64,000 bases of DNA, taken from contig JAPLDA010000011.1 in the NCBI GenBank assembly GCA_026391945.1, forward strand, positions 8,188 to 72,187, read 5' to 3'. The translations under genes and the position numbers were made by a program. Below, one piece after another: positions 4,088 through 59,920 of the stretch. This stretch comes from Bacteroidota bacterium (GTDB taxonomy: Bacteria > Bacteroidota > Bacteroidia > AKYH767-A > 2013-40CM-41-45). The notes under the pieces were generated by a model. The model was given only the letters and a program-made list of their open reading frames with translations. It had not been told where the DNA came from and made no database searches. Numbering within the stretch: position 1 is the stretch's first letter; every line of letters begins with the position of its first letter.

Positions 4088-4596
4088 CTTACTTTTTTCA
4101 TCTGGCAGTAAAAAAAATCATCGTCTTTTCCGTCACCATCAAAGTCGAGCTTTGATCTGAGTTCAGCAGATCCGGCAGTCAGGTCAACCCGGTAATTCAT
4201 CTGCTGGTCATTGGGAAAAAGCTGGTGAATCTTTAACTGGTTTTTCGCGGCCGACCATTTTCCGGCGGTGACTTTGATCACTTTGCCTTCAGCGTTTGTA
4301 TAAGCAGAAATATAGGTTTTATTCGGATTGAAGATCGTCTGGATCGGTTGCATTTTCATTCTCTCAACCCATTCATCGCTTCTTACTTCGAGGATCACCG
4401 ACATATCACTGTTGTGAATGGTGTCGATGCCGACGACCAGGGCATCGGTTCTCCACATGCCTACCAGGGAACTTTGTAAATCGTTATCGGCCTGGATGGC
4501 ATCCTGGCTGGCAGGAGGAACGGGTGCTTTGCTGCAACTCAAAAGGAAGAGCAACATGATCGTCAAAGGGAAGATGTATTTTCTGAGAGGTGTCAT
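4084..4596 (-). CDS. Lipoprotein, lipocalin-like, with a C-terminal DxDGDG motif
   Basis: Lipobox LLSC; LVGMW motif; DFDGDGKDDD near the C-terminus. Confidence 0.7.
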   Translation of the reverse strand: MTPLRKYIFPLTIMLLFLLSCSKAPVPPASQDAIQADNDLQSSLVGMWRTDALVVGIDTIHNSDMSVILEVRSDEWVERMKMQPIQTIFNPNKTYISAYTNAEGKVIKVTAGKWSAAKNQLKIHQLFPNDQQMNYRVDLTAGSAELRSKLDFDGDGKDDDFFYCQMKKVS

Positions 4597-4667: not shown

Positions 4668-5099
4668 TCAGTTGTTACGCGCTCCTTCCAGCATCCAGGT
4701 AACAATGGTGTCGATCCGGCCGGGCTTAAAAGCCGGTGCGTTCAGCGGCATCAACGGATAACCGTTTCCTTTGAGATGCCTGATGAGGTTGCTGTTGTTG
4801 GGATTGATCGTGTCGACATACGGAGCATGAATGCCATGAGGATTCGCATGCCATAAATTATTCCAGGAAACTTCGGCGCGCAAATCGAGGTATGGATGAT
4901 ACAGATTGTGGCAAATGATGCAGTTCTCATCGAAGAGCGGTTGTATGTCCTGCTGGTAATGGATTTTGAATGGATCATCCGGAGCCGGTTGAGAAGCCGG
5001 CTTCACAATCATGGGGCCTTTGTCTTTTTCACACGAAGAGATAATCAGCATAAAAAACAAAGCCACCATACCCGGGCGAATCAAAAGGTTCTTCAACAT
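4668..5099 (-). CDS. Monoheme cytochrome c lipoprotein (planctomycete cytochrome c-like)
   Basis: Lipobox ISSC; DIQPLFDENCIICH; distal MP; C-terminal WMLEGARNN. Confidence 0.8.
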   Translation of the reverse strand: MLKNLLIRPGMVALFFMLIISSCEKDKGPMIVKPASQPAPDDPFKIHYQQDIQPLFDENCIICHNLYHPYLDLRAEVSWNNLWHANPHGIHAPYVDTINPNNSNLIRHLKGNGYPLMPLNAPAFKPGRIDTIVTWMLEGARNN

Positions 5100-5102
5100 T
5101 TC

Positions 5103-6023
5103 TTATGATTTTGTTTTCGGTTTTTTCCAGTAGGTCCGTTTGATGTTGAAGCCGAGCAGGAATTTCTTCTTCGTGTAATCGGAAACCACGTTTGTATACA
5201 GTTGTTGTTCGAGGATTTCCTGCGATGAGCTTACGACGATCTGGAACACATGGCTCACCGTACCGAATTCCATGGCGATGGAGAGTGGATACAGTTTGTC
5301 TTCAGGTTGGTTGTTAAAACGGTATGCATATTCAAAGAGGAAAGAAGAATTCATCCCTGTTTTGATCGCTCCTCCGACCGGAAGAACAATCGTATGATTT
5401 TTAGTTCCGGCACTTGCCAGGTTTTTATAAATCAATGCCGGTGAAACCTCGAATGAAAACCAGTCGCAGAATTTCCTCGAGATGATGACCTGCGAATTGT
5501 AGCTGAGCCGGTGATTGAATTTGTAACGGAACGGAGTTACACCGTTATCAAAATAAGCATTCCTTGGTACAGGAAGGAAATCATCCGTATTCACGGCGGC
5601 GTCCAGGTACACGGAAACGGATACCGGGACGTTTGGATCAGTTGACTGGGTGAGTAATAACTGTTTCAGTTCTGCATCATACATTTTTCCGTTCTTCGTT
5701 CTTCCGGCTCCCACCTGAAGGTTTTTCATCACCGAAAAATCAAACCCAAAACGGATGTTTGCAAAAAGATCCAGTCCGAGAAAATTCTTGATCGCATCTT
5801 TATTCAATTCCATTTCACCAAAACGATGACGAATGCTGAATTCAAAACTGTGGGCGGGCTGGACAACTGTTGTCTGTGCGTTGATCAGCGTGGAACTCCG
5901 GAATGCATTGGTGATGTTTTCATTATCATCCAGGCCTAAATCCTGTGCAGTTGATTTTTGAATACCCGGAAAAACAAGCAGGTAAACAGTGCACATGATC
6001 AGGTACCGGAAAAATGATTTCAT
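5103..6023 (-). CDS. DUF5777-family outer-membrane beta-barrel protein
   Basis: Signal peptide from ATG 6023; motifs F.S..LINAQT, IRHRFG, FLGLD..ANIRFG, GT..HVFQIVVSSS, LGFNIKR. Confidence 0.8.
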   Translation of the reverse strand: MKSFFRYLIMCTVYLLVFPGIQKSTAQDLGLDDNENITNAFRSSTLINAQTTVVQPAHSFEFSIRHRFGEMELNKDAIKNFLGLDLFANIRFGFDFSVMKNLQVGAGRTKNGKMYDAELKQLLLTQSTDPNVPVSVSVYLDAAVNTDDFLPVPRNAYFDNGVTPFRYKFNHRLSYNSQVIISRKFCDWFSFEVSPALIYKNLASAGTKNHTIVLPVGGAIKTGMNSSFLFEYAYRFNNQPEDKLYPLSIAMEFGTVSHVFQIVVSSSQEILEQQLYTNVVSDYTKKKFLLGFNIKRTYWKKPKTKS

Positions 6024-6036
6024 GGTTACTTCTGAA

Positions 6037-6477
6037 TTAATAGGTGGAATTTTTCGGTAAGTTTTTTTTTCCAAGCTCACGGATGTAATTCACCAGCATC
6101 CATCGCTGCCTGGATGAAAGCGCTTTTGCATACGGTTGCATATTTCCTTTCCCGATGCTGATTTTCCAGAAGATGGAACCATCACTTTGCTTTTGAATCT
6201 GCACGCTCGTATGGTCCGCTGGTTTGGGATTCAATGTCGCTGCTGCAGGTCCGTCTCCTTTGCCGCTTAATCCATGGCAGGGCCAGCAGGCATTTTCGTA
6301 TATTTTTTTTGCCTCCTTTAACGTGAGTTCAGTTGCCGGCACACGATTCCTGAGCGTATCGGCATACGATGGAGCAATCCATATTTCATTCTGATGAACA
6401 GGTTGTGCGCTTATGATCGTCCACCCTGCCTCGGATAGCAGAAGACAAAAAAAATATCTGAAGAATGATTTTGTCAT
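6037..6477 (-). CDS. Exported monoheme c-type cytochrome
   Basis: Signal peptide; CWPCHGLSGKGDG; DGSIFWKI..G..NM; QRWMLVNYIR. Confidence 0.9.
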   Translation of the reverse strand: MTKSFFRYFFCLLLSEAGWTIISAQPVHQNEIWIAPSYADTLRNRVPATELTLKEAKKIYENACWPCHGLSGKGDGPAAATLNPKPADHTSVQIQKQSDGSIFWKISIGKGNMQPYAKALSSRQRWMLVNYIRELGKKNLPKNSTY

Positions 6478-6503
6478 CTTCCTCGTTGATGAAGGAACAA
6501 AGA

Positions 6504-6573
6504 TGTCATCAATAATAATATGACACCATTAAATATGTCAGTTAACCATACCTTATTGAATGACTGAAATCAT
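6504..6573. promoter_or_regulatory. Cluster of palindromic operator candidates between the cytochrome operon and sdhCAB
   Basis: TGTCAT-N10-ATGACA (6504-6525), TGACA-N10-TGTCA (6521-6540), ATGACTGAAATCAT (6560-6573, Crp/Fnr-like geometry). Confidence 0.45.
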
Positions 6574-6773
6574 ACGCATGGTTGCGATTTCGTAGGAAGC
6601 AATGTAACGGATGCCTATGGAAGCCCTTTGATACCGTGCAATACGTGGTGTCCGGTTCCTTGATCACTCACCTGTGGGAACTCACTTTTTTTTGTTGAAA
6701 AAAATTGTGTGTGATGATCCGTGCTTTTTCAAAACTGAACATTACCTTCGCCTGCGTATTTAACCAGGAAAAA

Positions 6774-7457
6774 ATGATTACATCTCTGAAAATGTTTTAC
6801 ACTTCGGTTGGCCGTAAACTGATCATGGCGCTTACCGGTTTATTTTTATGTGTGTTTCTCCTTGAACATCTCTATGGGAATTTACAATTGTATAAAATAG
6901 ACGGTGGGAAAGCGTTTAATGAATACACCGAATTCATGACAGGCAATATGTTCATCCGTGCCGTTGAGTTTATTCTTTTCGCGGGCATCCTCGTTCATGC
7001 CCTGGATGGTCTCATGCTGACCCTTGCAAACAGGAAAGCGCGCCCGGTACGTTATGCCGTAAGCCGCCAGTCGCAAAACAGCACCTGGTTTTCACGCAAC
7101 ATGGGACTCACCGGGAGCATTCTCTTTGTTTTCTTCGTGATCCACCTGCGCGAATTTTTCTTTGCTCACCGTTTCGGCGGAGCAACAGAATCGATGGCAG
7201 CCAGTGTGGCGAATGCATTTACCACTGCCTGGTATGCTTCGCTTTACATTGTTGCCATGATCATACTCGGCTTTCACCTGAACCATGGTTTCCAGAGTGC
7301 TTTCCAGACACTGGGGTTGAGCAATCACAAATACATTAAAACATGGAAGTGTGCCGGGACAGTTTTCGCGCTGATCATGATGATTGGTTTCGCCTCAGTT
7401 CCGGTGATGTTATATTTCGACTTTATGGGAATGTCTTCTAACATACTTGGAAAATAA
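6774..7457 (+). CDS. sdhC: Succinate dehydrogenase/fumarate reductase cytochrome b subunit
   Basis: SVGRKLIMALTGLFL..FL..HL.GNL and HL.HGFQSAFQTLG; five TM helices; first gene of the sdh operon. ATG 6774 preferred. Confidence 0.95.
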   Translation: MITSLKMFYTSVGRKLIMALTGLFLCVFLLEHLYGNLQLYKIDGGKAFNEYTEFMTGNMFIRAVEFILFAGILVHALDGLMLTLANRKARPVRYAVSRQSQNSTWFSRNMGLTGSILFVFFVIHLREFFFAHRFGGATESMAASVANAFTTAWYASLYIVAMIILGFHLNHGFQSAFQTLGLSNHKYIKTWKCAGTVFALIMMIGFASVPVMLYFDFMGMSSNILGK

Positions 7458-7520
7458 ATTTCATGGATGGAGTGTACGTCGCAATTTCTGCGGCAGCACC
7501 CTTACAAGAATAAAAAAAAT

Positions 7521-9440
7521 ATGAGCAAACTAAATTCACGAATTCCGGATGGTCCTCTTGAAGCCAAGTGGACGAAATACAAATCAACAGTCAGGCTGGT
7601 AAACCCCGCCAACAAAAGAAGAATCGAAGTGATCGTTGTCGGCTCCGGATTGGCAGGCGCTTCCGCGGCAGCATCACTGGCTGAACTTGGATATTCCGTC
7701 AAATGTTTTTGTTTCCAGGATTCACCGCGACGAGCCCATTCCATCGCTGCACAGGGAGGAATCAATGCCGCAAAAAATTATTCGAACGATGGCGACAGCG
7801 TGTTTCGCCTCTTTTATGATACAGTCAAAGGCGGTGATTACCGCGCACGTGAAGCCAATGTGTACCGCCTTGCTGAAGTGAGCAACGCCATCATCGACCA
7901 GTGCGTGGCGCAGGGAGTTCCGTTCGCCCGCGAGTACGGTGGCTTGCTGGATAACCGGTCATTCGGCGGTGTGCAGGTGTCCAGAACGTTTTATGCGCGC
8001 GGTCAAACAGGCCAGCAGTTGCTGCTCGGTGCGTATTCATCTTTGTCACGTCAGATTGCAAAAGGAAATTGCCAGATGTACAACCGCCATGAAATGCTGG
8101 AACTGGTAACCATCGATGGCAAAGCGCGTGGAATCATCTCACGCGACCTGGTGAGCGGTGAAATACAACGACATTCGGCGCATGCTGTGATTCTCGCAAC
8201 CGGCGGTTACGGCAACGTGTTTTTTCTTTCCACAAATGCCATGGGAAGCAATGCCACAGCAATTTGGAAAGCCTATAAGAAAGGAGCTTTTTTTGGTAAC
8301 CCATGCTTCACGCAAATTCATCCGACCTGCATTCCGGTTTCCGGAGACTATCAATCGAAACTCACGTTGATGAGTGAGAGCCTGAGAAACGACGGTCGTG
8401 TGTGGGTTCCGAAAGCAGTAGGTGATAAACGCAAACCCGAAGATATTCCTGAAGAGGAAAGAGATTATTACCTCGAACGCAGGTATCCTTCTTTCGGCAA
8501 CCTGGTTCCCCGGGATGTCGCATCCAGGGCGGCTAAACAGGTTTGTGATGAAGGAAAAGGTGTCGGCCCGTCAGGGCTTGCAGTTTTTCTTGAGTTCAAA
8601 GATTCCATCAAACGCCTGGGATTGGATGTGATCAAAGAACGATACGGAAATCTTTTTGAGATGTATGAAAAAATCACCGGTGAAGATCCGTATCACACGC
8701 CAATGCGCATTTACCCGGCCGTGCATTATACGATGGGTGGCTTGTGGGTTGATTACAACCTGATGACCACTGTTCCCGGTTTGTATGCTCTCGGTGAATG
8801 TAACTTCAGTGACCACGGTGCCAACAGGCTTGGTGCTTCCGCACTGATGCAGGGACTTGCCGATGGTTACTTCGTGATTCCTTATACCATTGGCGACTTC
8901 CTCGCTGATGAAATCCGGAATCCTGTTCCGCCAACGACGCATGCAGAATTTGATAAGGCGGAAAAGGAAGTGAAGGATAAAATCGACAGGCTCATGAACA
9001 TCAAAGGAAAACAAACCGTTGATGACCTGCATAAAAAACTCGGCAAAGTGATGTGGGAATATTGCGGCATGGGCAGAAACGAACCGGGATTGCTGAAAGC
9101 ACGTACACTGATAAAAGAAATTAAAGAGGAGTTCTGGAAAGACATCCGCATCCCGGGAAGTAAAGATGAATTCAATACCGAGCTGGAAAAAGCAGGTCGT
9201 GTGGCTGACTTCATCGAACTCGGTGCCTTGATGGTGGAAGATGCTTTGCTTCGGAAAGAATCCTGCGGCGGACATTTCCGTGAAGAATCACAAACGGAAG
9301 AAGGCGAGGCCAAGCGCGACGATGTCAATTTCAGTTTCGTGGCGGCCTGGGAATATGCGGGCGACAACAGTGCTCCTGTTCTGAATAAGGAAGAACTGAA
9401 ATTCGATGTCGTTCACCCGACACAAAGAAGTTATAAATAA
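7521..9440 (+). CDS. sdhA: Succinate dehydrogenase/fumarate reductase flavoprotein subunit
   Basis: GSGLAG FAD motif, [30 protein letters not shown] 7521 preferred. Confidence 0.97.
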
Positions 9441-9520
9441 TGAATGTGAAGATGGGTTCATTGGCAATACGCTGATGAAATCTATGTCGATCGTCAAACT
9501 ATAATCATCAAATTAAAATC

Positions 9521-10282
9521 ATGAGCGAAACAATCAATGTGAAATTAAAAATCTGGCGGCAAAAAAATACCAGCGACAAAGGACGTTTTGAACTATATGA
9601 CATGCCCGGTGTAAGCACACACATGTCGTTTTTGGAAATGATGGATGTGCTGAACGACCGCCTCGTAAGGGAAGGAAAAGATCCGGTTGCCTTTGATCAT
9701 GATTGCCGCGAAGGAATTTGCGGGATGTGCAGCATGTACATCAACGGCCGCGCTCACGGCCTGCTGAAAGGCACCACCACCTGCCAGCTTCACATGCGTC
9801 ATTTTGAAAATGGGGAAACGATTACCATTGAACCATGGAGGGCCGAAGCTTTCCCGGTGATTAAAGACCTCGCCGTCGACCGTACCGCTTTTGAAAAAAT
9901 CATGCAGGCCGGTGGTTATGTTTCCATGAATACGGGAAACGCCGTCGACGGAAATGCTTTGCCGATTGAAAAAGTAAAAGCCGATGAAGCCATGGATGCC
10001 GCTTCCTGCATCGGTTGCGGAGCATGTGTGGCTTCCTGCAAAAATGCTTCCGCCATGTTGTTCATGTCGGCGAAAGTTTCCCAGCTCGCCTTGCTGCCGC
10101 AGGGAGAACCTGAACGGTATGTGCGTGTGTTGAAAATGATGGAGGCTCATGACGAAGCAGGATTCGGAAGCTGCACCAACACCGGTGCCTGTGAATCGGA
10201 ATGTCCGAAAGAAATTTCAATCGCCCACATTGCACGTTTCAACCGCGATTACCTGACGGCAAGTGTGGTGAGTGAAAAATAA
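9521..10282 (+). CDS. sdhB: Succinate dehydrogenase/fumarate reductase iron-sulfur subunit
   Basis: [32 protein letters not shown]. Confidence 0.97.
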
Positions 10283-10469
10283 CAGCACTTCATCGGGAAT
10301 TTTATCGTTTGATTTTTCAGGTAACAGGAATTCTGTTTCCACATGATCTGTTTCCATTGCTTCCTGTGTTGTATCTCCATCAGAAGTTTTTTGGGGAACT
10401 CAAAGAAAAAATCCCAAACAGTGCCCCTGCCACTTCCTTACTCTTTTTGTGTATCAATTCAGAATCATG

Positions 10470-10477
10470 TAAGTTTG
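10470..10477 (+). promoter_or_regulatory. -7 promoter element for rnc
   Basis: TAAGTTTG matches TAnnTTTG, 33 bp before the start codon. Confidence 0.5.
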
Positions 10478-10510
10478 TGACTGTCGAAGAAAAACCAGGC
10501 AACACTACTT

Positions 10511-11227
10511 TTGTTTTCCATATTCAGAACATACTTTTCAAAGGATAAAAAACTTTTTCACGCGCTGAAAAATCTTCTCGGTTTTTATCCGAACAACCTT
10601 GCCGTTTATAAACTGGCATTCAGTCACCGGAGCAGTGCAGAAGAACATCCGAGCGGACTCAAGATGAGCAACGAACGCCTTGAATACCTCGGCGATGCTA
10701 TTCTCGGAGCCGTGGTAGCAGAAATGTTGTTCAGGAAATTTCCATTCAAAGAAGAAGGGTTTCTTACGGAGATGCGCTCGAAAATTGTAAACCGTGAAAA
10801 CCTCAACAAGCTTGCATTGAAACTGGGAATCGATCATTACATGAACGGATCCATTGACCCGGCGGCGAAAAGCCGTTCGGTGTATGGCGATGCATTTGAA
10901 GCGCTGATTGGCGCCGTTTACATCGACAAAGGTTACAGCGTCACCCGTTCGCTGATCCTTCACCGGTTCATCAAACACCACATTGATGTGGAAGAACTCG
11001 AATTGCTGGAACATAACTTCAAAAGCAAGCTCATCAACTGGGGACAACGCGAACGTAAGAATGTAGAATTCGAATTGCTGGAAGAGGTGGAAAACGGTGG
11101 AAAGCGTTTGCTGCGTGTCAGGGTTTTGGTGAACGGTGAAGAACTGGCAAGAGGTGAAGACTATTCGAAAAAAAGAGCCGAGCAAATTGCCGCTCAGAAA
11201 GTCTGCGAGTCAATAGGTATCAGTTAA
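10511..11227 (+). CDS. rnc: Ribonuclease III
   Basis: NERLEYLGDAIL signature, GDAFEALIGA, C-terminal dsRBD (SKKRAEQIAA). Confidence 0.97.
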   Translation: MFSIFRTYFSKDKKLFHALKNLLGFYPNNLAVYKLAFSHRSSAEEHPSGLKMSNERLEYLGDAILGAVVAEMLFRKFPFKEEGFLTEMRSKIVNRENLNKLALKLGIDHYMNGSIDPAAKSRSVYGDAFEALIGAVYIDKGYSVTRSLILHRFIKHHIDVEELELLEHNFKSKLINWGQRERKNVEFELLEEVENGGKRLLRVRVLVNGEELARGEDYSKKRAEQIAAQKVCESIGIS

Positions 11228-11288
11228 GCATCGGTTTCTGATCGAGAAGCAAGTAACAAAAAAGGGAACTTACTTTTTTATTATTTTT

Positions 11289-11368
11289 TTCACCACGGAG
11301 ATTCTGAGTACACAGAGGTTCACGGAGACATCTCTGTGGCTTTTTCGTGTCCTCCGTGCCGTGGTGAA
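11289..11368. repeat. Hairpin element of degenerate ~9-10-mer CAC(A/G)GAG units and their inverted copies
   Basis: Perfect terminal IR TTCACCACGG / CCGTGGTGAA; inner CACAGAG and CACGGAG versus CTCTGTG and CTCCGTG. Confidence 0.75.
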
Positions 11369-11465
11369 CTAATTTGTGAGCAAATGGAATAAGAGGAAAG
11401 AAGCCTGGTATTTTTTGTTATGAAAAATCACGTTTCTCATCTTCATTCCTTAATACTTTTTTCTC

Positions 11466-11473
11466 TACTTTTG
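11466..11473 (+). promoter_or_regulatory. -7 promoter element for the acyl-CoA dehydrogenase
   Basis: TACTTTTG matches TAnnTTTG. Confidence 0.5.
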
Positions 11474-11564
11474 TCCGCCTGAAGAGCAGTTATCAGAACG
11501 GATTTAGCATTTAAAATTTGATTTCTGAAATCATCAGAATATCTAAAAAATAAAATTATTCCTT

Positions 11565-12743
11565 ATGGCTCAAGACAGATTTCAATCGCACGATTATTAT
11601 TTGATGGATGAATTGCTCACGGAAGAACATAAACTCATTCGTTCCAGTGTGCGCGACTGGGTGAAAAAAGAAGTGTCGCCGGTTGTGGAAGAAGCCTGTC
11701 AGAAAGCGACATTCCCGAAACAATGGATCAAAGGATTGGCGGAGATCGGCGGCTTCGGTCCGTACATACCGGAAGAATACGGCGGCGGCGGGCTCGACCA
11801 GGTTTCTTATGGCCTCATCATGCAGGAGCTGGAGCGCGGCGATTCCGGTTTGCGTTCCACCGCTTCGGTTCAGAGTTCACTCGTGATGTATCCTATTTAC
11901 ACGTATGGAAGTGAAGAGCAGCGAAAAAAATATCTTCCCAAACTGGCCAGCGGCGAATGGATGGGATGTTTCGGGCTCACCGAACCGGATCATGGAAGCA
12001 ATCCCGGCGGCATGCTCAGCAACATCAAAGACAAAGGCGATCATTTTTTACTGAACGGTTCGAAGATGTGGATCAGCAATGCACCGTTTGCTGATGTAGC
12101 CGTGGTATGGGCGAAGGATGAACAGGGAATCATCCGCGGGATGGTTCTGGAACGCGGCATGAAAGGGTTCACCACTCCGGAAACCCACGGCAAATGGTCG
12201 CTGCGCGCCAGCGCTACCGGCGAACTGGTTTTTGATAACGTGAAAGTCCCGAAAGAAAATATTTTCCCGAATGTAAAAGGACTGAAAGGTCCTTTGGGCT
12301 GCCTGAATTCGGCGCGGTACGGAATTGCCTGGGGCGCCATCGGCGCTGCACTGGATTGCTATGATTCGGCTCTGCGCTATGCGAAGGAGCGCGTTCAGTT
12401 CGGGAAACCGATAGCGTCGTTCCAGCTTACTCAGAAAAAACTCGCCGAGATGATTACGGAAATCACCAAGGCACAACTGCTCACCTGGCGTTTGGGAGTT
12501 TTGAAAAATGAAAACCGTGCAACACCGGCACAGATCAGCATGGCCAAGCGAAACAATGTGAACATGGCGTTGCAGGTTGCCCGCGAAGCGCGACAGATAC
12601 ACGGCGGCATGGGCATCACGGGCGAGTACCCGATCATGCGCCACATGATGAACCTCGAAAGCGTAATCACCTACGAAGGCACGCACGACATTCATTTGCT
12701 CATAACAGGAATGGATGTAACGGGGATCAATGCGTTTGAATAA
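11565..12743 (+). CDS. gcdH: Acyl-CoA dehydrogenase, glutaryl-CoA dehydrogenase type
   Basis: GCFGLTEPDHGSNP, ELERGDSGLRS..SVQSSLVM, HMMNLESVITYEGTHDIH. Confidence 0.85.
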   Translation: MAQDRFQSHDYYLMDELLTEEHKLIRSSVRDWVKKEVSPVVEEACQKATFPKQWIKGLAEIGGFGPYIPEEYGGGGLDQVSYGLIMQELERGDSGLRSTASVQSSLVMYPIYTYGSEEQRKKYLPKLASGEWMGCFGLTEPDHGSNPGGMLSNIKDKGDHFLLNGSKMWISNAPFADVAVVWAKDEQGIIRGMVLERGMKGFTTPETHGKWSLRASATGELVFDNVKVPKENIFPNVKGLKGPLGCLNSARYGIAWGAIGAALDCYDSALRYAKERVQFGKPIASFQLTQKKLAEMITEITKAQLLTWRLGVLKNENRATPAQISMAKRNNVNMALQVAREARQIHGGMGITGEYPIMRHMMNLESVITYEGTHDIHLLITGMDVTGINAFE

Positions 12744-12752
12744 ACCGAAGGC

Positions 12753-12787
12753 GGAGGCTGGAAATTGGAAGACGGAAGTTGGGCGGT
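12753..12787 (+). repeat. Degenerate heptamer tandem repeat (GGAAGNN-like x5)
   Basis: GGAGGCT GGAAATT GGAAGAC GGAAGTT GGGCGGT, starting 10 bp after the stop codon. Confidence 0.55.
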
Positions 12788-12875
12788 TGACATAATCACT
12801 AAGCATTGGTTCATGATTCTTACATCCTGTTATTTTTTTTTGTATTTTTCTGCTCCTAATCTAAAACCTATCACC

Positions 12876-13682
12876 ATGAAATTAAAATCTACCATTCTTA
12901 CCCGGAGCATGTTCCTGTTATTCAGCATTAGCCTGGTAACGGTTTCGAATGCCCGCCCGCTTGTGTATTGCGTTCCTACGTTTTTGAACGGATGTACGCA
13001 ATGGAATAATCACACCATCACCCTGAACACCATCAACTGGACAATCGGTGCAACAGCCTGCACCGTTTCAGATTATACCAGTCAGTCCACCACGCTCACG
13101 GCCGGAACATCTTACCCGATGACCGTGATCAACGGCGCCTGGTGCGGTTGTTCTGTCTGGATCGATTTTAACCAGAACCAGGTGTTTGATACGATAGAAA
13201 ATCTTTATCATTCGTACCAGGGCAACTCGCCAACCTTCACGTATAATTTCAACATTGCCATTCCTGCTACTGCACCCAACGGAACTTACCGGATGCGTGT
13301 AATCGGGCCATGGGGATCTGACGGATATACAGTCGGTAGTGGTAATGGATGGGGCGGCTGTGGTTCTTACCAGTATGGAAACTTTGAGGACTTTACCGTT
13401 ACCATTGTTGGTTCCGTTGGTATTCCAAACATTGCCGGCAACAACTTACCTGTGATGTCTGCTAGTCCGAATCCTGCAACTACGGAAATCACCGTCACGA
13501 TGAATGACATAAAAGGAAAGGAAGCGAAACTGCAGCTCATGGATATTACCGGGAAACTCATACGCACCATAGATGTTCGAAGTGAAAAGGAAGTGCTCGA
13601 TATCGCCGATCTTTCAAAAGGAATTTACATTCTCCATTATGCCGACGGTGATCGCGGCCAGGACATCAGGCTGGTGAAATAA
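12876..13682 (+). CDS. GEVED-domain protein with T9SS type A C-terminal sorting domain
   Basis: VWIDFNQN..F, GTYRMRV, GNFEDFTV (GEVED-like); C-terminal SPNPAT...DITGK...LSKGIY. ATG 12876 preferred. Confidence 0.85.
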   Translation: MKLKSTILTRSMFLLFSISLVTVSNARPLVYCVPTFLNGCTQWNNHTITLNTINWTIGATACTVSDYTSQSTTLTAGTSYPMTVINGAWCGCSVWIDFNQNQVFDTIENLYHSYQGNSPTFTYNFNIAIPATAPNGTYRMRVIGPWGSDGYTVGSGNGWGGCGSYQYGNFEDFTVTIVGSVGIPNIAGNNLPVMSASPNPATTEITVTMNDIKGKEAKLQLMDITGKLIRTIDVRSEKEVLDIADLSKGIYILHYADGDRGQDIRLVK

Positions 13683-13736
13683 AATACCAACGCCAGCAAA
13701 ACGCTTTCCTGTTTTCGAAAGCAAATTTCTACTCAT

Positions 13737-13769
13737 AAAAAGGACTCCTCTGAAACGGAGTCTTTTTTT
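13737..13769. terminator. Intrinsic terminator, possibly bidirectional
   Basis: AAAAA-GGACTCC-loop-GGAGTCT-TTTTTT between convergent genes. Confidence 0.75.
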
Positions 13770-13989
13770 GTGGGTTCATTCCAGCCTTTTTTATTTCTCT
13801 ATGTTCCATGGTAAAATTTTTTAAACATAGCATCGAGGACATGGAGGTTTGCCAGGAAACAGTGTGTTTACTCTGTCAATAGATTTGAGTCACCCAGGTT
13901 TAGGATAACACGTGAGCATGGAAGGTTGCAGAGGACTTTTTATACCAGGATTTCGGAAGCGAAGAAAAAAATACCGGGAAGAATTCCTG

Positions 13990-14199
13990 TCATGCCTTTT
14001 TCAAAAAACAGGTTTTGAGTACCAGCGTTACCTTATCTACGCGGCCTTCTATTTCGTCAGGGTTGGATGTGAGGCGGATGTTTTTTACCACCTGTCCTCT
14101 TTTCAGATCCGTAGGACTGCCTTTTACTTTTAAACTTTTAATGAGGGTTACGTTATCGCCTTCTGCAAGCAGGTTGCCATTGCTGTCTCTTACGTCCAT
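13990..14199 (-). CDS. phnA: PhnA/YjdM-like small protein (C-terminal PhnA domain only)
   Basis: VRDSNGNLLAEGDNVTLIKSLKVKG...VKNIRL...LKT.FLKKA. Confidence 0.85.
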   Translation of the reverse strand: MDVRDSNGNLLAEGDNVTLIKSLKVKGSPTDLKRGQVVKNIRLTSNPDEIEGRVDKVTLVLKTCFLKKA

Positions 14200-14274
14200 G
14201 ATTTTTATTGAATAAATAAATTAGAGCACGCAATATCCGACTTTATTTAAAAGTATAAACAAATTATTCCAACA

Positions 14275-14862
14275 CTATTTCTCAAAGTGAAGATTGGAGG
14301 GTTCCTTGTTCGGCATCAGGTTTTCTTTTCCTCTGCCCGTTGTTGGAACAGTGGTCTCCACCACATCGAAGTTCAGGTCGCTGAACCAGATCTGACCTGT
14401 GCCGACGAGCAATGCTCCGTATGCCATGTTGGAAGCGTTGAGCGGAACATCGAGGACAATTTCATATTTTTTCCAGTCGGTGGTTCCTTTCACAGGCCTG
14501 TCGAGCATGTTGTCGAACGACAATGGTATTTTTGAATGGGCTTCATCAATTCTCAGCCAGAGCCCGGCTTTGTCGTCCACATTTTTTGATTTTACGTAAC
14601 CGCTCATGCGGATTCTTCTCCCGATGTATTTGTCGGGCAGGCATTCCTGCATGAGCGTGCCGAAGCCATGAATTTTTTTGGTGTTGGATTGAATGGTGGC
14701 GGCGTTGCTGCCGTTTTGCCCGGCGCCTTTATCAATACCCATGTCGTAACTTTTCGGATCGCTTCCGGCTTTGAACCAACCTTTCGGTAAATCGAAAGAA
14801 AAAAATGTTGCGGCGATGGCGATGAACAATAAGCTTGTCAGGATTCTTTTTGTGGAGGTCAT
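14275..14862 (-). CDS. Exported stand-alone carbohydrate-binding-like beta-sandwich protein
   Basis: Signal-like N-terminus; FGTLMQ, AGLWLRID, FDNM..RPVKGTTDWKKYEIVLDVP, GTGQIW. I recall this domain fused to AraC regulators and esterases. Confidence 0.6.
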   Translation of the reverse strand: MTSTKRILTSLLFIAIAATFFSFDLPKGWFKAGSDPKSYDMGIDKGAGQNGSNAATIQSNTKKIHGFGTLMQECLPDKYIGRRIRMSGYVKSKNVDDKAGLWLRIDEAHSKIPLSFDNMLDRPVKGTTDWKKYEIVLDVPLNASNMAYGALLVGTGQIWFSDLNFDVVETTVPTTGRGKENLMPNKEPSNLHFEK

Positions 14863-15038
14863 GGGCGGGGAGGTGTTTGTTTTTCATGTCTCGAAACATG
14901 AAAGATTTCTTAATGCACCAAGTTACAAGATTTAAAATTATCCTTTTTTAAACAACGAAACTCTCAGAGCTAACCTACAAAATTTTTTTCTCATCCCCCA
15001 TGAAGCGATGAAAACAAAATAACAGCTATCGTTTGGTT

Positions 15039-16856
15039 TTATTTTACAGGTACAACTTCAGGCAAGGCGAGATTCTGCAGCCAGCTTTCGGCATTGCTGA
15101 GATCCTCTTTCATCACAGCAAGGTATCGTTCGCTTTCCTGGTGAATGGAAGTGAGGAGTCGTTTATAATAGTCAACGCCTTCAAGCAAATTGGTTTTGAA
15201 TGTCTGCAGGTACTTCGCCTGGCGCGCATTGATTTCACCGATGCTTTTTGAAATTTCATTTTTCAGGTAGTCCGTGTAAAGATTCAGTTCGTTGACGAAC
15301 ATGTTCGGGCGACGTAACGAATTGAGCAGGTTGCAGCGGCCGTAGATGTGATCTGCCATCTGTTGCAACGTGAAGATTCCTGAAAAGTACGCCAGGTTGG
15401 GCCCCGGGCAAATGGTAACGGCTTTGAGATGATGATGAAGAGGCATGTGGTTTTTCAGCAATATCGATGCATCCAGCCCTTCACACAAACAATCTTTTTC
15501 GACAATGGTTTTTAATTCCGCTTCAAAGATTTGTTCCGGAAGATTCTTCTCTTCGAGCTGTTTGATTTTCAGTTGTTGGTATTCACGCGAAGCGGTGCAG
15601 ATCGGCAGCGCAGTAAATTCGGTATTGGTGGAGAGAAACTTTTTATAGCACGGACTGCCCGGCCTTCCTTTGTCGATGCGCAATTGCATTTGTTTCTGAG
15701 CAGAACTTTTCCTGAAATTATGAAACGGTATTCCCAACGGTGAGTTGTTGCTCAGGTAATAATCTTCTTTTTCTGCCGTTGCCAGTTGGTGCAATGTTTC
15801 ATCATCCACGTTGGTCACTTCAGGCACCAGTAAAAAAGGACTTCCCCAGCCGGTGCCGTCCACATCGTAATAGCCGAGCAGGAAATTATTTTCATTGGAA
15901 GTGCCGATTCCGCCCTGGACGGTAATTTTCATTCCGGGCTGCTGAGGAAAAGCATCGTATTTTTTTTCAGTCAAGGCACGGCTGCACATTTCAAAAAGTT
16001 CAGCGGCAATCTCCTGTTTCTTTACTTTGAATTCTTCGAGGATGGGGCCGAGCAGGATTCCATCGGTCGCAAAAGCATGTCCGCCGCAGTTCAACCCGGA
16101 TTCGATCCTGAACTCTGAAACCCACAACCCTTTTTTTGCCATGAGTTTTCCCTGCGTGAGTGCAGAACGGTAGTCACTTACTTTCAGTATGATTTTCTTT
16201 TTCAGGTTTCCGTTTGCATCCGGGAAAAAGTCGCGGAAGTTTTCGATGTAAGCATACAAACGCGGGTTATAGCCGGCAGAAAATACGACGGAAGAATCCA
16301 GTTCGCTGTTGGCAAAACCCCTGAACGCCGACAGTGCGTCGGAATATTCCAAAGGCAACGGCTCGCCGCTCTTCGTATAAGCCGGCTTGTCGATTTTCGA
16401 CATGATGTTCACGTCGATGGAACCTGCAATGATTTTAGAGCGGAGTTCCTGTTGCAATGATTCCTTCTTTTTCCCTTCTTCTGAATGTTGCATCTCCCGG
16501 TAAGTTTTCTTTACAGGAGAATTGTCGGGAAGAAGTTCAAAATATTTCGTAAGATCGTTTCCTTCTTCAAAAGGAAGTGTGCGGAGTAGGTTCACCTGTT
16601 GCTTCACCAAACGGTTTAGGAGATCGAGGTAAGCGGTGATGCGTTTGGCGCGGAAATCAAAAACATCCGTGGTGATGGCATCATACTGCTCTCCTGATTG
16701 CAGGCAATGATATTTCCGCATCTCCTCAACCAATTCATCTTCGATGATGGAAACGACGGATGAAATTCCGAACCTGGCAATTTTTAAAGGAGTATCAATC
16801 GTATAGCACAATCCCATCACGGGAATGTGAAACGTATGTTGTTCGGCTCGGCTCAT
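15039..16856 (-). CDS. Conserved Bacteroidota hypothetical protein with nitronate monooxygenase/FabK-like FMN barrel motifs and a Cys-rich tail
   Basis: HTFHIPVMG, FSAG.NPRLY, ESGLNCGGHAF, VQGGIGT, GWGSPFL, SPLGIPF; Cys in SPCYKK, PICTAS, KDCLCEG, TICPGPN. Confidence 0.7.
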   Translation of the reverse strand: MSRAEQHTFHIPVMGLCYTIDTPLKIARFGISSVVSIIEDELVEEMRKYHCLQSGEQYDAITTDVFDFRAKRITAYLDLLNRLVKQQVNLLRTLPFEEGNDLTKYFELLPDNSPVKKTYREMQHSEEGKKKESLQQELRSKIIAGSIDVNIMSKIDKPAYTKSGEPLPLEYSDALSAFRGFANSELDSSVVFSAGYNPRLYAYIENFRDFFPDANGNLKKKIILKVSDYRSALTQGKLMAKKGLWVSEFRIESGLNCGGHAFATDGILLGPILEEFKVKKQEIAAELFEMCSRALTEKKYDAFPQQPGMKITVQGGIGTSNENNFLLGYYDVDGTGWGSPFLLVPEVTNVDDETLHQLATAEKEDYYLSNNSPLGIPFHNFRKSSAQKQMQLRIDKGRPGSPCYKKFLSTNTEFTALPICTASREYQQLKIKQLEEKNLPEQIFEAELKTIVEKDCLCEGLDASILLKNHMPLHHHLKAVTICPGPNLAYFSGIFTLQQMADHIYGRCNLLNSLRRPNMFVNELNLYTDYLKNEISKSIGEINARQAKYLQTFKTNLLEGVDYYKRLLTSIHQESERYLAVMKEDLSNAESWLQNLALPEVVPVK

Positions 16857-16951
16857 GTACGAATATTCATTGACAACATGAGAGTGTTCCGTTCGGCTGA
16901 ATCAATCCCACGCATCTGACTTTAAAGAAGGCATTTTTTCTTTGGATGGGT

Positions 16952-16967
16952 CATGACTTTGATCATG
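16952..16967. promoter_or_regulatory. Crp/Fnr-like palindrome CATGACTTTGATCATG
   Basis: CATGA-N6-TCATG about 95 bp upstream of the 605-aa gene; closely matches 6560-6573. Confidence 0.5.
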
Positions 16968-17504
16968 TTTTAGCATAGGCGCTGTTTCAATTGCCTTTCC
17001 ATATTTGGCCGTGTACAAAACGTGTTTGTAAAATTGGAAATGATTGATCATGTACCATCCGGAACTTCAATGAACAATGGAATAAAATTTCCGGTGTTTC
17101 CGATTCCATCAATAGACAATCGATATTTTTAAAATCGTTTTTATAAACTGGCTATTCCTCTTTTCCTTTGTGAATAGTATTGGTTGGATAATAAACGAAA
17201 CATGAGTGTGTAAGTGCTCCCTTGTTATTCGAAAGGGACTCGCAGTAAAATGCCCGATGCCGAATCATACTGCTAAAGATACCGGTGTATAAGTAATAAG
17301 GCAAGGGTTACACTTTCAAGTCTGATGATGAGCCTCCATTTTTTAAGCTCTCTTTTTAAATGAATATTCAATGAATATTTAATTGAATAGACAAAAAATA
17401 CGTTTTAATACTTTAATTTAGACAAAAGTTATTTTCGTTTCCGGATGAATTCGTTTTTGCAGTGAGTTGTTTCGTTAATTACAAACCAGTAATTTCTTTA
17501 AGCC

Positions 17505-17948
17505 ATGAGTAGAATAAATCAATCCATATTGATTATTTTTTTGATGAGTTATTCTTTGCTTACTTTTTCCCAGAACAAACAATTGGAAGAACACCGGCGC
17601 AAATGGGATACCCCGGCATGGACAGATACGATCAGGAATCCATATGTTAACATAACTGCAGCTACTGACAGTGGGAAAATATTGTATGGACAAATCTGCA
17701 GCGTATGTCATGGTATGTCCGGTAAAGGCGATGGCGTGGCTGCGGCAGGATTAAGTGTCAGGCCGGCCAACCATACTTCAGCGAATGTACAATTGCAAAC
17801 TGACGGTTCGTTGTTTCATGAATTATCAAACGGTCATGCGCCGATGCCAGCTTATAAAGATGCACTTACTCCAAAGCAACGTTGGTCACTGATCAATTAC
17901 ATACGGGTACTTGGAAAGAAAAACGCTCCAGTCAAATCTTCTCATTAA
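17505..17948 (+). CDS. Exported monoheme c-type cytochrome, paralogue of 6037-6477
   Basis: Signal peptide; CSVCHGMSGKGDG; DGSLF..LS.G..PM; QRWSLINYIR.LGKKN. Confidence 0.9.
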   Translation: MSRINQSILIIFLMSYSLLTFSQNKQLEEHRRKWDTPAWTDTIRNPYVNITAATDSGKILYGQICSVCHGMSGKGDGVAAAGLSVRPANHTSANVQLQTDGSLFHELSNGHAPMPAYKDALTPKQRWSLINYIRVLGKKNAPVKSSH

Positions 17949-17960
17949 TCATTAACATTT

Positions 17961-19103
17961 ATGCAAAAACCAAACGCTATGAAAAAATTAATCCTATTGC
18001 TATTTGTCGGTGCATGGTGCGTTTCGCCCACGTATGCACAATCTGACGCAAAAGAAAGTCCGAGAGATTTCGGGTCTAATAAACTTCTTATCACAGGTCA
18101 TGCAACCGTAACGGCTGTGATGGATTCGGGACAAAACAATATCAGTGAAGCCAATTTCTCAGCCATCTTCCTGTATCATTTGTCTGAAAAATTATTTTTA
18201 GAATCTGAACTTGAAATCGCAACAGGCGAAGGCAGCGCTGAACTCGGATTAGAGCATGCGAACCTGGTTTGGATGTTCAATAAAAACATTGCATTCCATG
18301 CCGGGCGTTTTGTACCTCATTTCGGTTTATACAGGGGCCGGCTTGGCGAAGGTTTTATCAATCGCTTCCCTACCGACCCGGCAGGATTTGGTGATGGCGG
18401 CATTGGAACCATGGAAGCTGTTGGTTTTGGTTTCCAGGGTGGTTTTGCTTTAGGTGTTTCAAAAATGAATTACGATCTGTGGGTGTCTGATGGACCGCAT
18501 CTTCTTACGGATATAGCAAATGCCGGCCAATTTGACTACGAGGCATACAAGGATAATAACAAGAACAAAGCGGTTGGCGGGCGCATCGGTTTTCTCCCAT
18601 TTACCAACTCCTGTCTTGAATTGGGTTTGTCTTTTGAAAATACAAAAAAGACGGGAGACCTGTATTCACCATTTGAGAATGTAGGCGTGAGAATGATGGC
18701 AGTGGATTTTAATTTTTATCACCAGGTGAGTCCATTGATGAGCACGATTCGTCTGACAGGTGAATATAAAAAACAAGACGTTGATAAATTTGATTATCCT
18801 GTTCCTTATGATTCAACAGGAGCTATTTTCACATTTGATAATTCGTCTAACGCATATTATGTATCGGCTTCAATTCGCCCAAGTAGCTCTGAGAATGAGA
18901 TCTTACGCAACTTCGAAATCGCGTATCGCTACTCAAAATTTACTACGCCCAAAGAGGCTCCATGGGGAACAGCCGAACCGGTTGTTCGCAATGTTGTAGC
19001 ACTTAATTACTGGCTGAAATGGAATTGTGTGTTAAAGGTTGCATTTCAGAAGGAGACAAACGTTGCCGACGCAGTGTATGTTCAAATGTTCTACGGTTTC
19101 TAA
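17961..19103 (+). CDS. Outer-membrane beta-barrel (porin-like)
   Basis: Signal peptide; amphipathic strands; ESELE, AGRF...FG, DNNKNKAVGGRIG; C-terminal YGF (BAM signal). Confidence 0.8.
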   Translation: MQKPNAMKKLILLLFVGAWCVSPTYAQSDAKESPRDFGSNKLLITGHATVTAVMDSGQNNISEANFSAIFLYHLSEKLFLESELEIATGEGSAELGLEHANLVWMFNKNIAFHAGRFVPHFGLYRGRLGEGFINRFPTDPAGFGDGGIGTMEAVGFGFQGGFALGVSKMNYDLWVSDGPHLLTDIANAGQFDYEAYKDNNKNKAVGGRIGFLPFTNSCLELGLSFENTKKTGDLYSPFENVGVRMMAVDFNFYHQVSPLMSTIRLTGEYKKQDVDKFDYPVPYDSTGAIFTFDNSSNAYYVSASIRPSSSENEILRNFEIAYRYSKFTTPKEAPWGTAEPVVRNVVALNYWLKWNCVLKVAFQKETNVADAVYVQMFYGF

Positions 19104-19126
19104 TCATTTTAAAAAAGAGAAAAACA

Positions 19127-19387
19127 ATGAAAAAAATAATCATACTTTTTATATTCGTCATGTCAGGAAGTGCTATGTTATTCAGCAGCTGCGCTCCTAC
19201 TAAAGAGATTGCTGACAAGAGCGGTGCCCAGTTATGGGGTGAGAATTGTAACCGTTGCCACAATGCTCCGTCTATGGATCAATATTCAAAAGAACAGTGG
19301 CCCATCATTGGCTCGCACATGAAACTGAAAGCAGGCCTCACCGATGATGAGGTAAACAAAATTGTTTCGTTTCTGAAAGGAAGTTAA
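19127..19387 (+). CDS. Small monoheme cytochrome c lipoprotein
   Basis: ATG 19127; lipobox FSSC; GAQLWGENCNRCH; QW..I..HM; LTDDE...IV.FL. Confidence 0.85.
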   Translation: MKKIIILFIFVMSGSAMLFSSCAPTKEIADKSGAQLWGENCNRCHNAPSMDQYSKEQWPIIGSHMKLKAGLTDDEVNKIVSFLKGS

Positions 19388-19407
19388 TTCGGGCTTTGGT
19401 TTGTGTC

Positions 19408-19435
19408 AGAGGCGATCGGGTTGATCGCCTCTTTT
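19408..19435 (+). terminator. Intrinsic terminator closing the cytochrome-porin-cytochrome unit
   Basis: AGAGGCGATC-GGGTT-GATCGCCTCT-TTT, a perfect 10-bp stem. Confidence 0.8.
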
Positions 19436-19511
19436 GTTTGGCAGGAAATTCCTGGTGCGGATCTTTGCCCAGTGGTGAAAAATTTCATTTTCATTTGGAT
19501 ACATTTAGCGG

Positions 19512-20741: not shown

Positions 20742-20815
20742 AATTTTCTGACCCGGAAGAAAAATAAAAATTGATTTGAGTTACCGGGATTCTGTGAACA
20801 GAATTTCAAAGCAGC

Positions 20816-21301
20816 CTAATTTTTTCCGTCATTCTGGCGCATGAACTCCAGGAGATTGCGGGCGTCTTCATCACTGACACCCTGGCTTGGCATTCGTACC
20901 AAACAGGTGATAAACATTTTTTGCGCGATGAGATCGCTGTCGAGCATGACGTTTGTGTTCGTGATAAAGTTCATGATCCATTCTGGTGTTCGCCTGTCAG
21001 TAACTCCTTTCCATCCTGGTCCAACTAATTTTTCGGCTGTAAGTTTGTGACAGGCAAAACATTTTCCATCGTAAATCGGTTTGCCTTTTGTGATCAGTGC
21101 GGCATCTAAAGGATGAGTGAGTTGAACATTTTTGAATTTACCAATTCCATTGTCTGCTTCTTTTCCCGACTCAGCCTGCTTCATCAGGTTCGTGGTATCA
21201 TTCGACTTGCCTGCATTTCCGGGTTGTTTGTTGTCACTACAACGAATGGCTGTTATTGCAATCATGGAAAATAGAATCATGTACAGTGAATGGCGTTTCA
21301 T
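20816..21301 (-). CDS. Monoheme cytochrome c lipoprotein of the type found beside clade II nosZ
   Basis: Probable lipobox AIRC; KCFACHKLTAEKLVGPGWKGVTDRRTPEWIMNFITN; CLVRMP.Q; LEFMRQND. Confidence 0.85.
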   Translation of the reverse strand: MKRHSLYMILFSMIAITAIRCSDNKQPGNAGKSNDTTNLMKQAESGKEADNGIGKFKNVQLTHPLDAALITKGKPIYDGKCFACHKLTAEKLVGPGWKGVTDRRTPEWIMNFITNTNVMLDSDLIAQKMFITCLVRMPSQGVSDEDARNLLEFMRQNDGKN

Positions 21302-59914: not shown

Positions 59915-59920
59915 ATCGGT

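Follow-up and report, generated by a model that had tools for sequence, protein, structure and literature searches.

Two cytochrome-barrel cassettes in one window

The DNA analysed here, called the window throughout, is a stretch of 64,000 nucleotides (G000:C1:8188-72187) from a 3.1-Mb, 114-contig freshwater Bacteroidota genome, and it carries two three-gene cassettes, A and B, that each encode an exported cytochrome c, an outer-membrane barrel and a lipoprotein with a heme-binding motif. An initial annotation, made from the sequence alone, had described the two cassettes as sharing this order with tight spacing, and the open reading frame (ORF) map confirms both, with intergenic gaps of 13 and 3 bp in cassette A and of 12 and 23 bp in cassette B. 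The six genes are as follows.

A1, 6037..6477, minus strand: exported class-I monoheme cytochrome c (Pfam), 146 aa, motif CWPCH, paralogue of B1
A2, 5103..6023, minus strand: DUF5777 outer-membrane barrel, 306 aa, of a divergent subfamily (PF19089, E 6.5e-65)
A3, 4668..5099, minus strand: PSCyt1-like lipoprotein with CIICH and a C-terminal W-x3-G-A-x-N-N (motifs and lipobox read from the sequence)
B1, 17505..17948, plus strand: exported class-I monoheme cytochrome c, 147 aa, motif CSVCH, c552/ActE-like (PF13442/PF00034)
B2, 17961..19103, plus strand: outer-membrane porin, 380 aa, 16 strands in the AlphaFold 2 (AF2) model, no Pfam or NCBIfam family
B3, 19127..19387, plus strand: lipoprotein monoheme cytochrome, 86 aa, lipobox Cys22, C41-x-x-C44-H45 and H64-M65, predicted plug of B2

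The start of A2 was taken as the ATG at 6023; a longer GTG frame from 6080 overlaps A1 on the ORF map. A1 and B1 are class-I cytochromes c with clear Pfam matches (PF00034/PF13442), and the gap-free alignment of the two first genes that had been noticed at the outset holds, with 54 of 114 residues identical (47%, 0 gaps, E 5e-38). The remaining partners are unrelated between the cassettes, as had also been claimed: the barrels A2 and B2 show no relation (best E 0.64), and the similarity of A3 to B3 is limited to 25 residues around CxxCH. This difference in both barrels and heme lipoproteins agrees with the modular design of interchangeable parts that the initial annotation had proposed. A1, A3, B1 and B3 contain one CxxCH each.

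Recurrence of the cassette B trio

Cassette B loci were collected by a pattern scan with one genome per species, which gave 72 loci with 73 barrels, mostly from metagenome-assembled genomes of Chitinophagales, and the genes of each locus were identified by ORF calling and phmmer labelling. One of the trio carriers, at L061, is a cultured organism, Ginsengibacter hankyongi BR5-29. Barrels and loci at contig edges were left out of the counts of assessable cases. A cytochrome c lies upstream of the B2-type barrel in 64 of 67 assessable cases, in 59 as a separate gene and in five fused to the barrel (six of the 73 barrels are at a contig edge); the single-ORF cytochrome-barrel fusions are those of loci L035, L044, L045, L046 and L060. 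Downstream of the barrel, B3 is found in 67 of 71 assessable cases, with two further barrels at contig ends. The flanking genes vary, so that the trio alone is constant across the 72 loci, and no catalytic enzyme is conserved beside it. The commonest neighbours outside the trio are a Crp/Fnr regulator (17/72 loci) and two proteins of the types encoded immediately downstream of cassette B in the window, the cytochrome B5 (14/72) and the membrane protein B4 (9/72).

The association of B3 with the barrel is strict. In a sample of 146 genomes from 40 genera of the order, the barrel occurs in 27 genomes and 15 genera; strong B3 matches (E<=1e-31) are present in 26 of these 27 genomes and in none of the other 119, and they always adjoin the barrel. 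The sole barrel genome without a strong B3 match (G417) has its barrel cut by a contig end, and the weaker B3-like matches seen in other genomes (E 1e-7 to 1e-13) belong to a different group of small cytochromes. Among 401 Bacteroidota genomes drawn evenly from the phylum, 19 match at E<=1e-10, and the full trio is present in ten of the 11 new loci, five of the 11 being from other classes. Within the genome itself, a tblastn search across the contigs located three complete B trios, namely that of the window, one on contig C111 (barrel 63% identical) and one on contig C75. Because the B trio thus recurs three times in the genome as well as in the 72 loci and the 11 loci elsewhere, and because the A trio recurs in orthologous loci, the gene-order data support the view that each trio is a conserved functional unit and not a chance neighbourhood. 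The co-occurrence of cytochromes with barrels on which the initial annotation depended is borne out by the neighbourhood survey for the B2 relatives and for the A2 orthologues, with the counts for A given below.

The B2 porin, its family and its natural fusions

The AF2 model of B2 (mean predicted local distance difference test, pLDDT, 88.4; predicted template modelling score, pTM, 0.83) has 16 strands; its turns are short on the side where both termini lie and its loops long on the opposite side. Loop 118-152, which comprises 35 residues and contains a short helix, points inward. Foldseek matched the model to OmpF/OmpC/OmpU-type porins (E ~5e-12, template modelling score 0.57-0.68), and in its strand number and inward loop the fold fits the OmpF/OmpC type of general porin, with no match to a Pfam porin family. 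At the sequence level B2 has no Pfam match even at E<=10, no NCBIfam match and no PDB match. A homologue search returned 177 relatives, all unnamed, and among the best 120 of these Pfam domains (PF13442/PF00034) were found in only seven, of 549-581 aa. An exhaustive profile search extended the set to 1949 representatives at E<=1e-3, and B2 and its relatives constitute a large porin family lacking a Pfam model. In most of the distant relatives the N-terminus is extended by 50-100 residues without heme motif, coiled-coil-like and rich in repeats of the type Y-V-S-R-E-E-Y-E-K-L-K.

An N-terminal class-I cytochrome is present in 13 of the best 150 B2 representatives, with CxxCH at residues 40-95, and the fusions of cytochrome c, linker and barrel are 549-639 aa in length. 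The fusion cytochromes fall in two clades of a FastTree phylogeny of 90 cytochromes (support values not read). A small N-terminal heme domain like that of the one-piece cytochrome-porin Cyc2 was found in none of the 150 best relatives, the 13 heme-bearing ones all having a full class-I domain. For the 581-aa fusion of L035, AF2 gave a confident cytochrome domain (residues 30-130) and a barrel, and the linker between them (133-242, pLDDT ~25) is predicted to be a long disordered tether on the N-terminus of the porin. PMC8406198 places the porin N-terminus in the periplasm.

The B3 lipoprotein and its predicted seat in B2

In 62 B3 sequences the lipobox Cys22, C41, C44, H45, H64 and M65 are invariant, and W37 and W58 are kept. 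The match of B3 to the class-I cytochrome c Pfam family is borderline (21.4 bits against a cut-off of 21.3), and a PDB sequence search gave nothing better than E 0.027, so that by sequence no solved relative was found. The complex of B2 and B3 was predicted from B2 residues 28-380, B3 residues 22-86 (65 residues) and a heme ligand with custom alignments. Its interface score ipSAE was 0.91, 0.90 and 0.91 in the three runs against 0.01 for the best control, with a contact agreement of at least 94% and a partner pLDDT of at least 90. Of 80 solved complexes, 58 attained this mark, as did 2 of 110 mismatched pairs, which is only a rough guide for a prediction that uses custom alignments and heme. 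Because sequence searches gave no solved relative of either protein, the score is unlikely to come from model memory.

The B2 residues in contact with B3 are 41-43, 71-73, 79, 81, 103-113, 159-170, 215-220, 251-255, 262, 308, 351 and 354-355, together with 126-128 and 132-133 in the inward loop. Mapped on the AF2 model, they fall at the periplasmic ends of strands 1-7, 9-11 and 14, on the short turns and on loop residues 126-133, and because the contacts ring the barrel at these positions, B3 is predicted to form a plug in the periplasmic mouth of B2, under the inward loop. Eleven of the 42 contact positions are conserved at 90% or more (L71, E81, G160, G165, K168, N216, S217, E220, N251, W351 and W354). 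Three of them, N216, S217 and W354, are kept in plain trio-type barrels, whereas heme-less relatives whose N-termini are long have lost them by deletion or substitution; E220 and W351, with R306, E319 and R323, are family-wide B2 residues. Residue pairs predicted across the interface of B2 with B3 include E220-R43, N216/S217-E39 and W354-H45/P48. The contact between barrel and cytochrome that had been proposed for the cassettes is thus supported for B2 and B3 by the complex prediction, and the natural fusions also argue for it. The role of surface module that had been proposed for B3 is not supported, since the prediction seats B3 in the periplasmic mouth and its relatives are rich in K, S and Q after the lipid cysteine, lacking the acidic residues of the export type. 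Acidic residues in that position recall the surface-export signal of Bacteroidota.

Cassette A as part of a five-gene DUF5777 unit

A2 matches DUF5777 (PF19089) over the full profile (1-247) with 219 bits against a cut-off of 23.1, and the family occurs in 167 of the 401 sampled Bacteroidota genomes. Of the 30 best DUF5777 loci, 25 have one or more PSCyt1-like lipoproteins, followed by the barrel and often accompanied by a tRNA_anti-like oligonucleotide/oligosaccharide-binding (OB) protein and YceI, as identified by Pfam searches on samples. None of these 30 loci has an A1-type cytochrome, and the idea that cassette A is a general feature of DUF5777 was rejected. Orthologues of A2, at 42-54% identity, were found at 20 loci in the 146 genomes of the order; an A1-type cytochrome lies upstream in 18 of the 20, and an A3-type lipoprotein lies downstream in 17 of 19 assessable loci, with CxxCH in 16 of the 17. 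Longer regions were examined for 15 of the 20 loci, and in all 13 that had enough upstream DNA the gene order is a lysyl-oxidase-like protein secreted by the type IX secretion system (T9SS), a polyferredoxin (Fer4_5) with tetratricopeptide repeats (TPR), cytochrome c (missing in L169), DUF5777 and lipoprotein. The first two genes of this unit are found in the present genome on contig C65, beside a paralogue of A3 (53% identity), and judging by this synteny cassette A of the window represents the distal three genes of a five-gene unit.

A3 itself has no match to PSCyt1 (PF07635), also when Pfam is searched at E<=10; against a cut-off of 22 bits its orthologue at L126 scores 22.9, the paralogue C50b 23.3 and L091 25.2. 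It shares the layout of the DUF5777-linked lipoproteins, F-x2-D-I-x-P-[IL]-F ... C-x-x-C-H ... M-P ... W-x3-G-A-x-N-N, and its orthologues keep C-E-K-D-x-G-P after the lipid cysteine. In the FastTree phylogeny the A-linked cytochromes group in a single clade that lies within the B-linked ones. The periplasmic carrier, which had been taken as shared between the cassettes, is therefore not literally shared, the cytochromes of the two cassettes being of one family. The synteny of cassette A is observed directly; contact with the barrel, heme occupancy and orientation we infer.

Copies elsewhere in the genome and possible modules for electron input

By tblastn the genome encodes nine A1/B1-type cytochromes, among them ActE, whose gene belongs to the Alternative Complex III (ACIII) cluster of contig C46. 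The solved chains nearest to B1 are cytochrome c552 (7o9u, E 2.6e-12) and the ACIII subunit ActE (6f0k_E, E 5e-10; 6btm_E, E 1.2e-4). A caa3-type oxidase subunit I matches C46:1086-2454 in two pieces with 2 in-frame TGA codons, which may reflect a frameshift, a gene that is broken or a fault in the assembly. DUF5777 barrels are three in number, A2, one at 58955-59914 of the window and one on contig C50, and the latter two are preceded by small lipoproteins that end in W-x3-G-x-x-N-N, as A3 does, but in which C-x5/6-CH replaces CxxCH.

Contigs C35 (1-8253) and C111 (1-2462) overlap by exactly 141 bp and when joined encode a Crp/Fnr regulator, then two successive modules of a twin-arginine translocation (TAT) Fe-S protein, an NrfD-type membrane protein, an unknown protein and a cytochrome c, and then the barrel and small cytochrome of the C111 trio. 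The unknown proteins of these tandem modules (loci L007 and L005) are 212 and 297 aa long. The modules resemble minimal quinol:cytochrome c oxidoreductases of an ACIII-like kind that lack a catalytic subunit. A trio directly after modules of TAT Fe-S protein, NrfD-type protein and cytochrome c is found both here and in L036/L038. Such NrfCD-type modules upstream in some loci, together with the ActE-like character of B1, appear to tie cassette B to the quinone and cytochrome pool. Candidate electron sinks in the genome are caa3- and cbb3-type oxidases and a NosZ-like gene, and a paralogue of B5 (C60:17471-17013) lies upstream of that NosZ-like gene of 660 aa, a label given from reading its sequence alone. 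A further cytochrome island, on contig C62 (locus L008, 4150-7949), combines a pair of Crp/Fnr genes with two A1/B1-type cytochromes and a 179-aa tetraheme cytochrome, and it also encodes a TAT Fe-S protein and a protein of the NrfD type.

Other features of the window

The following features lie beside the two trios or elsewhere in the window.

A4, 4084..4596, minus strand: lipoprotein, 170 aa, no family match, outside the conserved unit
Terminator-like hairpin, 19408..19432, plus strand: 11-bp stem with 6 GC at the 3' end of the B trio (pattern scan, consensus match only)
B4, 19512..20741, plus strand: polytopic membrane protein, 409 aa, possibly NnrS-like, facultative neighbour
B5, 20816..21301, minus strand: lipoprotein cytochrome c, 161 aa (PF00034), facultative neighbour
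Third DUF5777 pair, 58955..60349, minus strand: barrel (58955-59914) and PSCyt1-like lipoprotein (59921-60349), no class-I cytochrome c

No homologue of A4 was found beside A2 orthologues in the 20 loci, and A4 matched no family. B4 has no Pfam match, also at E<=10, and no NCBIfam match; in the ESM Atlas its relatives are Bacteroidota hypothetical proteins, and the nearest named cluster, NnrS at 0.78, is a lead only. B4 and the convergent B5 form a pair at 19512-21301 that recurs beside the B trio elsewhere. The third DUF5777 pair appears to be the common form of the family, without a class-I cytochrome c. Its lipoprotein has C-x5-CH and no CxxCH, so heme binding may have been lost in this copy. 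Genes for an anti-sigma RskA-like protein (60389-60940) and a DUF4271 membrane protein (57951-58886) flank the pair.

Between the cassettes, within 4668-19435, lie the unrelated genes sdhCAB and genes for RNase III, an acyl-CoA dehydrogenase and a T9SS protein. The operon for succinate dehydrogenase/fumarate reductase (6705-10282), which encodes the cytochrome b subunit, the flavoprotein and the Fe-S subunit, is divergent from cassette A across a 227-bp spacer. Upstream of cassette B, 15039-16856 encodes a 605-aa coiled-coil-rich protein with a homologue just downstream of the cassette A orthologue in another genome (G402, locus L168), which may be a coincidence. At 22428-23073 a Gp49/HigB-like gene precedes an HTH_3 gene, and the two are a likely toxin-antitoxin pair. 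The FNR/Crp box TTGAT-N4-ATCAA was rejected as uninformative, since the window has 81 matches where shuffles gave 68.8 +/- 8.8; the 650 bp upstream of B1 contain no match, and one site with 2 mismatches is in the A1-sdhC spacer. No RNA run is listed as containing 17400-19500, and two metatranscriptome runs, from samples whose DNA runs contain the stretch, were uninformative on expression, only 20-33-nt pieces of unrelated contigs being matched.

Interpretation of the cassettes

Our preferred interpretation, to which we give an even chance, is that both cassettes are small outer-membrane redox units with a heme at a pore, cassette B consisting of a porin, a heme plug and a shuttle. The B3 heme lipoprotein would sit in the periplasmic mouth of B2 under the inward-folded loop, and the plug heme would be the place where a small redox-active solute, having come into the pore from outside, is oxidised or reduced. 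Soluble B1 would carry electrons between the B3 heme and inner-membrane complexes, and in some species it would be tethered to the N-terminus of the porin by the disordered linker of about 100 residues. Cassette A may do the same job with a DUF5777 barrel and a PSCyt1-like heme lipoprotein, and it may be fed by the membrane polyferredoxin and linked to the secreted lysyl-oxidase-like protein. The path and direction of the electrons, the substrate and any contact between the parts of cassette A we infer. A first guess for the substrate, by analogy with Cyc2, would be Fe(II)/Fe(III) chelates; this role in iron is suggested for cassette B by the analogy, and roles at low oxygen or with N-oxides are possible.

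Of the known systems, the closest in design are Cyc2, Cyc2PV-1 and Cyt572 with their partners Cyc1 and Cyt579, in which a 16-strand porin is likewise combined with a small periplasmic monoheme cytochrome as the next carrier. Cytochrome 579 is the best NCBIfam match of both A1 (E 6e-12) and B1 (E 4e-11), although far below the cut-off. Cyc2 is proposed to be a 16-strand porin with a cytochrome plug at the periplasmic opening, into the pore of which Fe2+ enters (PMC8406198; PMC13741234), and its structure is described as still unsolved in a 2026 review (PMC13741234). Cyc2PV-1 has been expressed in E. coli together with the ccm genes. The predicted position of B3 matches that of the Cyc2 heme plug, a likeness between models on both sides, and cassette B may be regarded as a two-gene equivalent of the fused Cyc2 plus a periplasmic cytochrome. 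There are also clear differences. Cyc2 is one polypeptide, in which a signal peptide comes first and the porin last, whereas in cassette B the heme domain is a separate lipoprotein gene (67 loci); no sequence relation between the two could be detected, and Pfam and NCBIfam hold no matching model. The small N-terminal CXXCH domain of Cyc2 contrasts with the full-size class-I domain that B-type fusions carry on a disordered linker of ~100 residues. Cyc2 is found in iron oxidisers, whereas the hosts of cassette B are heterotrophic Bacteroidota with no known iron phenotype.

Other likenesses concern single components. B1 is related to ActE of ACIII but is encoded outside the ACIII operon, which is on contig C46, and the same is true of A1. 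Cytochrome c_y hangs on a long flexible tether from a membrane anchor, and the B1-type domain of the fusions is likewise on such a tether, but is anchored to an outer-membrane porin and not to the inner membrane. Cassette A shares with the common module of DUF5777, PSCyt1-like lipoprotein and YceI the barrel family of A2 and the lipoprotein layout of A3; where the common form has YceI and OB-fold proteins, the A subfamily has instead a class-I cytochrome c after the genes for the polyferredoxin-TPR and lysyl-oxidase-like proteins.

Several observations weigh against our interpretation. The trio is incomplete at some loci, the upstream cytochrome being missing in L029, L057 and the distant L082 and B3 being missing in L022, L060, L080 and L082. 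Among the 133 full-length top representatives of the B2 family, 66 have a coiled-coil-like N-terminus without CxxCH, and the B2-type barrel would thus be in essence a porin to which cytochrome partners were added. The geometry of the plug comes from a single model's prediction on custom alignments, and AF2 of the L035 fusion leaves the B1-type domain unplaced (pTM 0.60), which is uninformative on the docking of B1. Nothing in the sequences points to iron, and the Crp/Fnr, nosZ-type cytochrome and possibly NnrS-like neighbours would fit a low-oxygen or N-oxide physiology equally well. For cassette A, A2 was found at E<=1e-30 in none of three genomes of the same genus, and heme binding does not seem to be universal among DUF5777-linked lipoproteins, because many of them have C-x5-CH instead of CxxCH.

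A simple alternate explanation, which we consider improbable, is that B2 (and A2) are specific diffusion channels and no more, which let in the substrate for a redox pathway in the periplasm; the cytochromes would be ordinary periplasmic carriers of that pathway, with no electron step at the barrel. The plain general-porin fold of B2 and the large size of its mostly heme-less family would suit such a channel, and channel genes commonly neighbour enzyme genes. However, an import channel does not account well for a trio that alone is constant and has no conserved catalytic enzyme beside it, for the physical fusion of cytochrome c to the barrel in several lineages, for the strict co-occurrence of B3 with B2, or for the controlled prediction that seats B3 inside the barrel mouth.

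The predicted plug could also be read as the heme of a redox-gated porin or sensor, which opens or closes the pore or reports the redox, O2 or NO state of the envelope. We find this quite improbable. In the predicted position the plug would occlude or narrow the channel, and the Crp/Fnr-type regulators and the possibly NnrS-like protein found in 17 and 9 of the 72 loci would be suitable company for a sensor, but regulators are absent from most loci. A dedicated electron carrier encoded with or tethered to 64 of the 67 assessable barrels fits electron flow better, as do the quinol-dehydrogenase-type modules directly upstream in some loci.

The initial annotation had proposed a minimal, all-monoheme conduit across the outer membrane. 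Its conserved units, its one heme per protein and the B2-B3 contact stand; the crossing of the membrane does not, since one heme in a 16-strand porin cannot wire across it. MtrCAB, PioAB/MtoAB and the porin-cytochrome conduit (Pcc) of Geobacter (OmaB-OmbB-OmcB) do share with the cassettes the order of periplasmic cytochrome, barrel and lipoprotein cytochrome, and a cytochrome inserted in the barrel. In the Mtr and Pcc conduits 8-12-heme wires run through barrels with at least 20 strands and are accompanied by surface cytochromes, whereas here each protein has a single heme, the barrel is 16-stranded and B3 is predicted to be periplasmic. Because of the single heme per protein and the 16-strand barrel, cassette B is not a wire of the Mtr/Pcc type. 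That a periplasmic cytochrome, the barrel and a surface lipoprotein cytochrome nevertheless form a true minimal conduit to insoluble or surface acceptors is very improbable: the Pcc-like gene order, the link of cassette A to a T9SS-secreted lysyl-oxidase-like protein as a possible surface partner and the C-E-K-D-x-G-P motif of the A3 orthologues would favour it, but all predicted B2-B3 contacts are at periplasmic strand ends, the residues after the B3 lipid cysteine are not acidic, and hemes on opposite faces would be too far apart for tunnelling, the limit for which is about 14 Å. Since a single heme in a 16-strand porin cannot span the membrane, the substrate would need to come into the pore, as in the geometry proposed for Cyc2, which is the arrangement of our preferred interpretation.

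Relation to published work and significance

Full-text literature searches found no description of either cassette, although the supplementary tables of PMC6344600 may list such genes, and no paper with the term DUF5777. PMC6344600 mentions putative PCC and Cyc2 homologues in Bacteroidetes metagenome-assembled genomes without detail, and PMC10654088 contains no term beginning with Bacteroid. The natural cytochrome-porin fusions and the strict co-occurrence of the parts constitute unusually clean comparative evidence for an uncharacterised family that lacks a Pfam model.

Two designs are known for electron exchange at the outer membrane, a large barrel with a multiheme wire inside (Mtr, Pcc) and the fused one-heme porin Cyc2. 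In a two-piece version the porin and the 65-residue lipoprotein could be separately expressed, mutated and solved, which would make the idea of a heme plug in a pore directly testable. Such a version would also bring pore-confined redox chemistry to Bacteroidota, which are abundant heterotrophs of lakes and soils, and environmental surveys would gain new marker genes that are missed by searches for Cyc2 or for multiheme cytochromes. A bolder proposal, tentative and in our judgement rather doubtful, is that Bacteroidota evolved at least twice, from unrelated parts, a minimal outer-membrane redox device in which a barrel and a heme lipoprotein are combined with a private c552/ActE-like shuttle that connects to interchangeable inner-membrane electron modules, NrfCD-type for the porin version and polyferredoxin for the DUF5777 version, and that the porin version is a functional split Cyc2 for dissolved iron or humic-type solutes. 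If this is true, common freshwater and soil heterotrophs would oxidise or reduce such solutes at the pore and add a contribution to environmental redox cycling that has so far gone uncounted.

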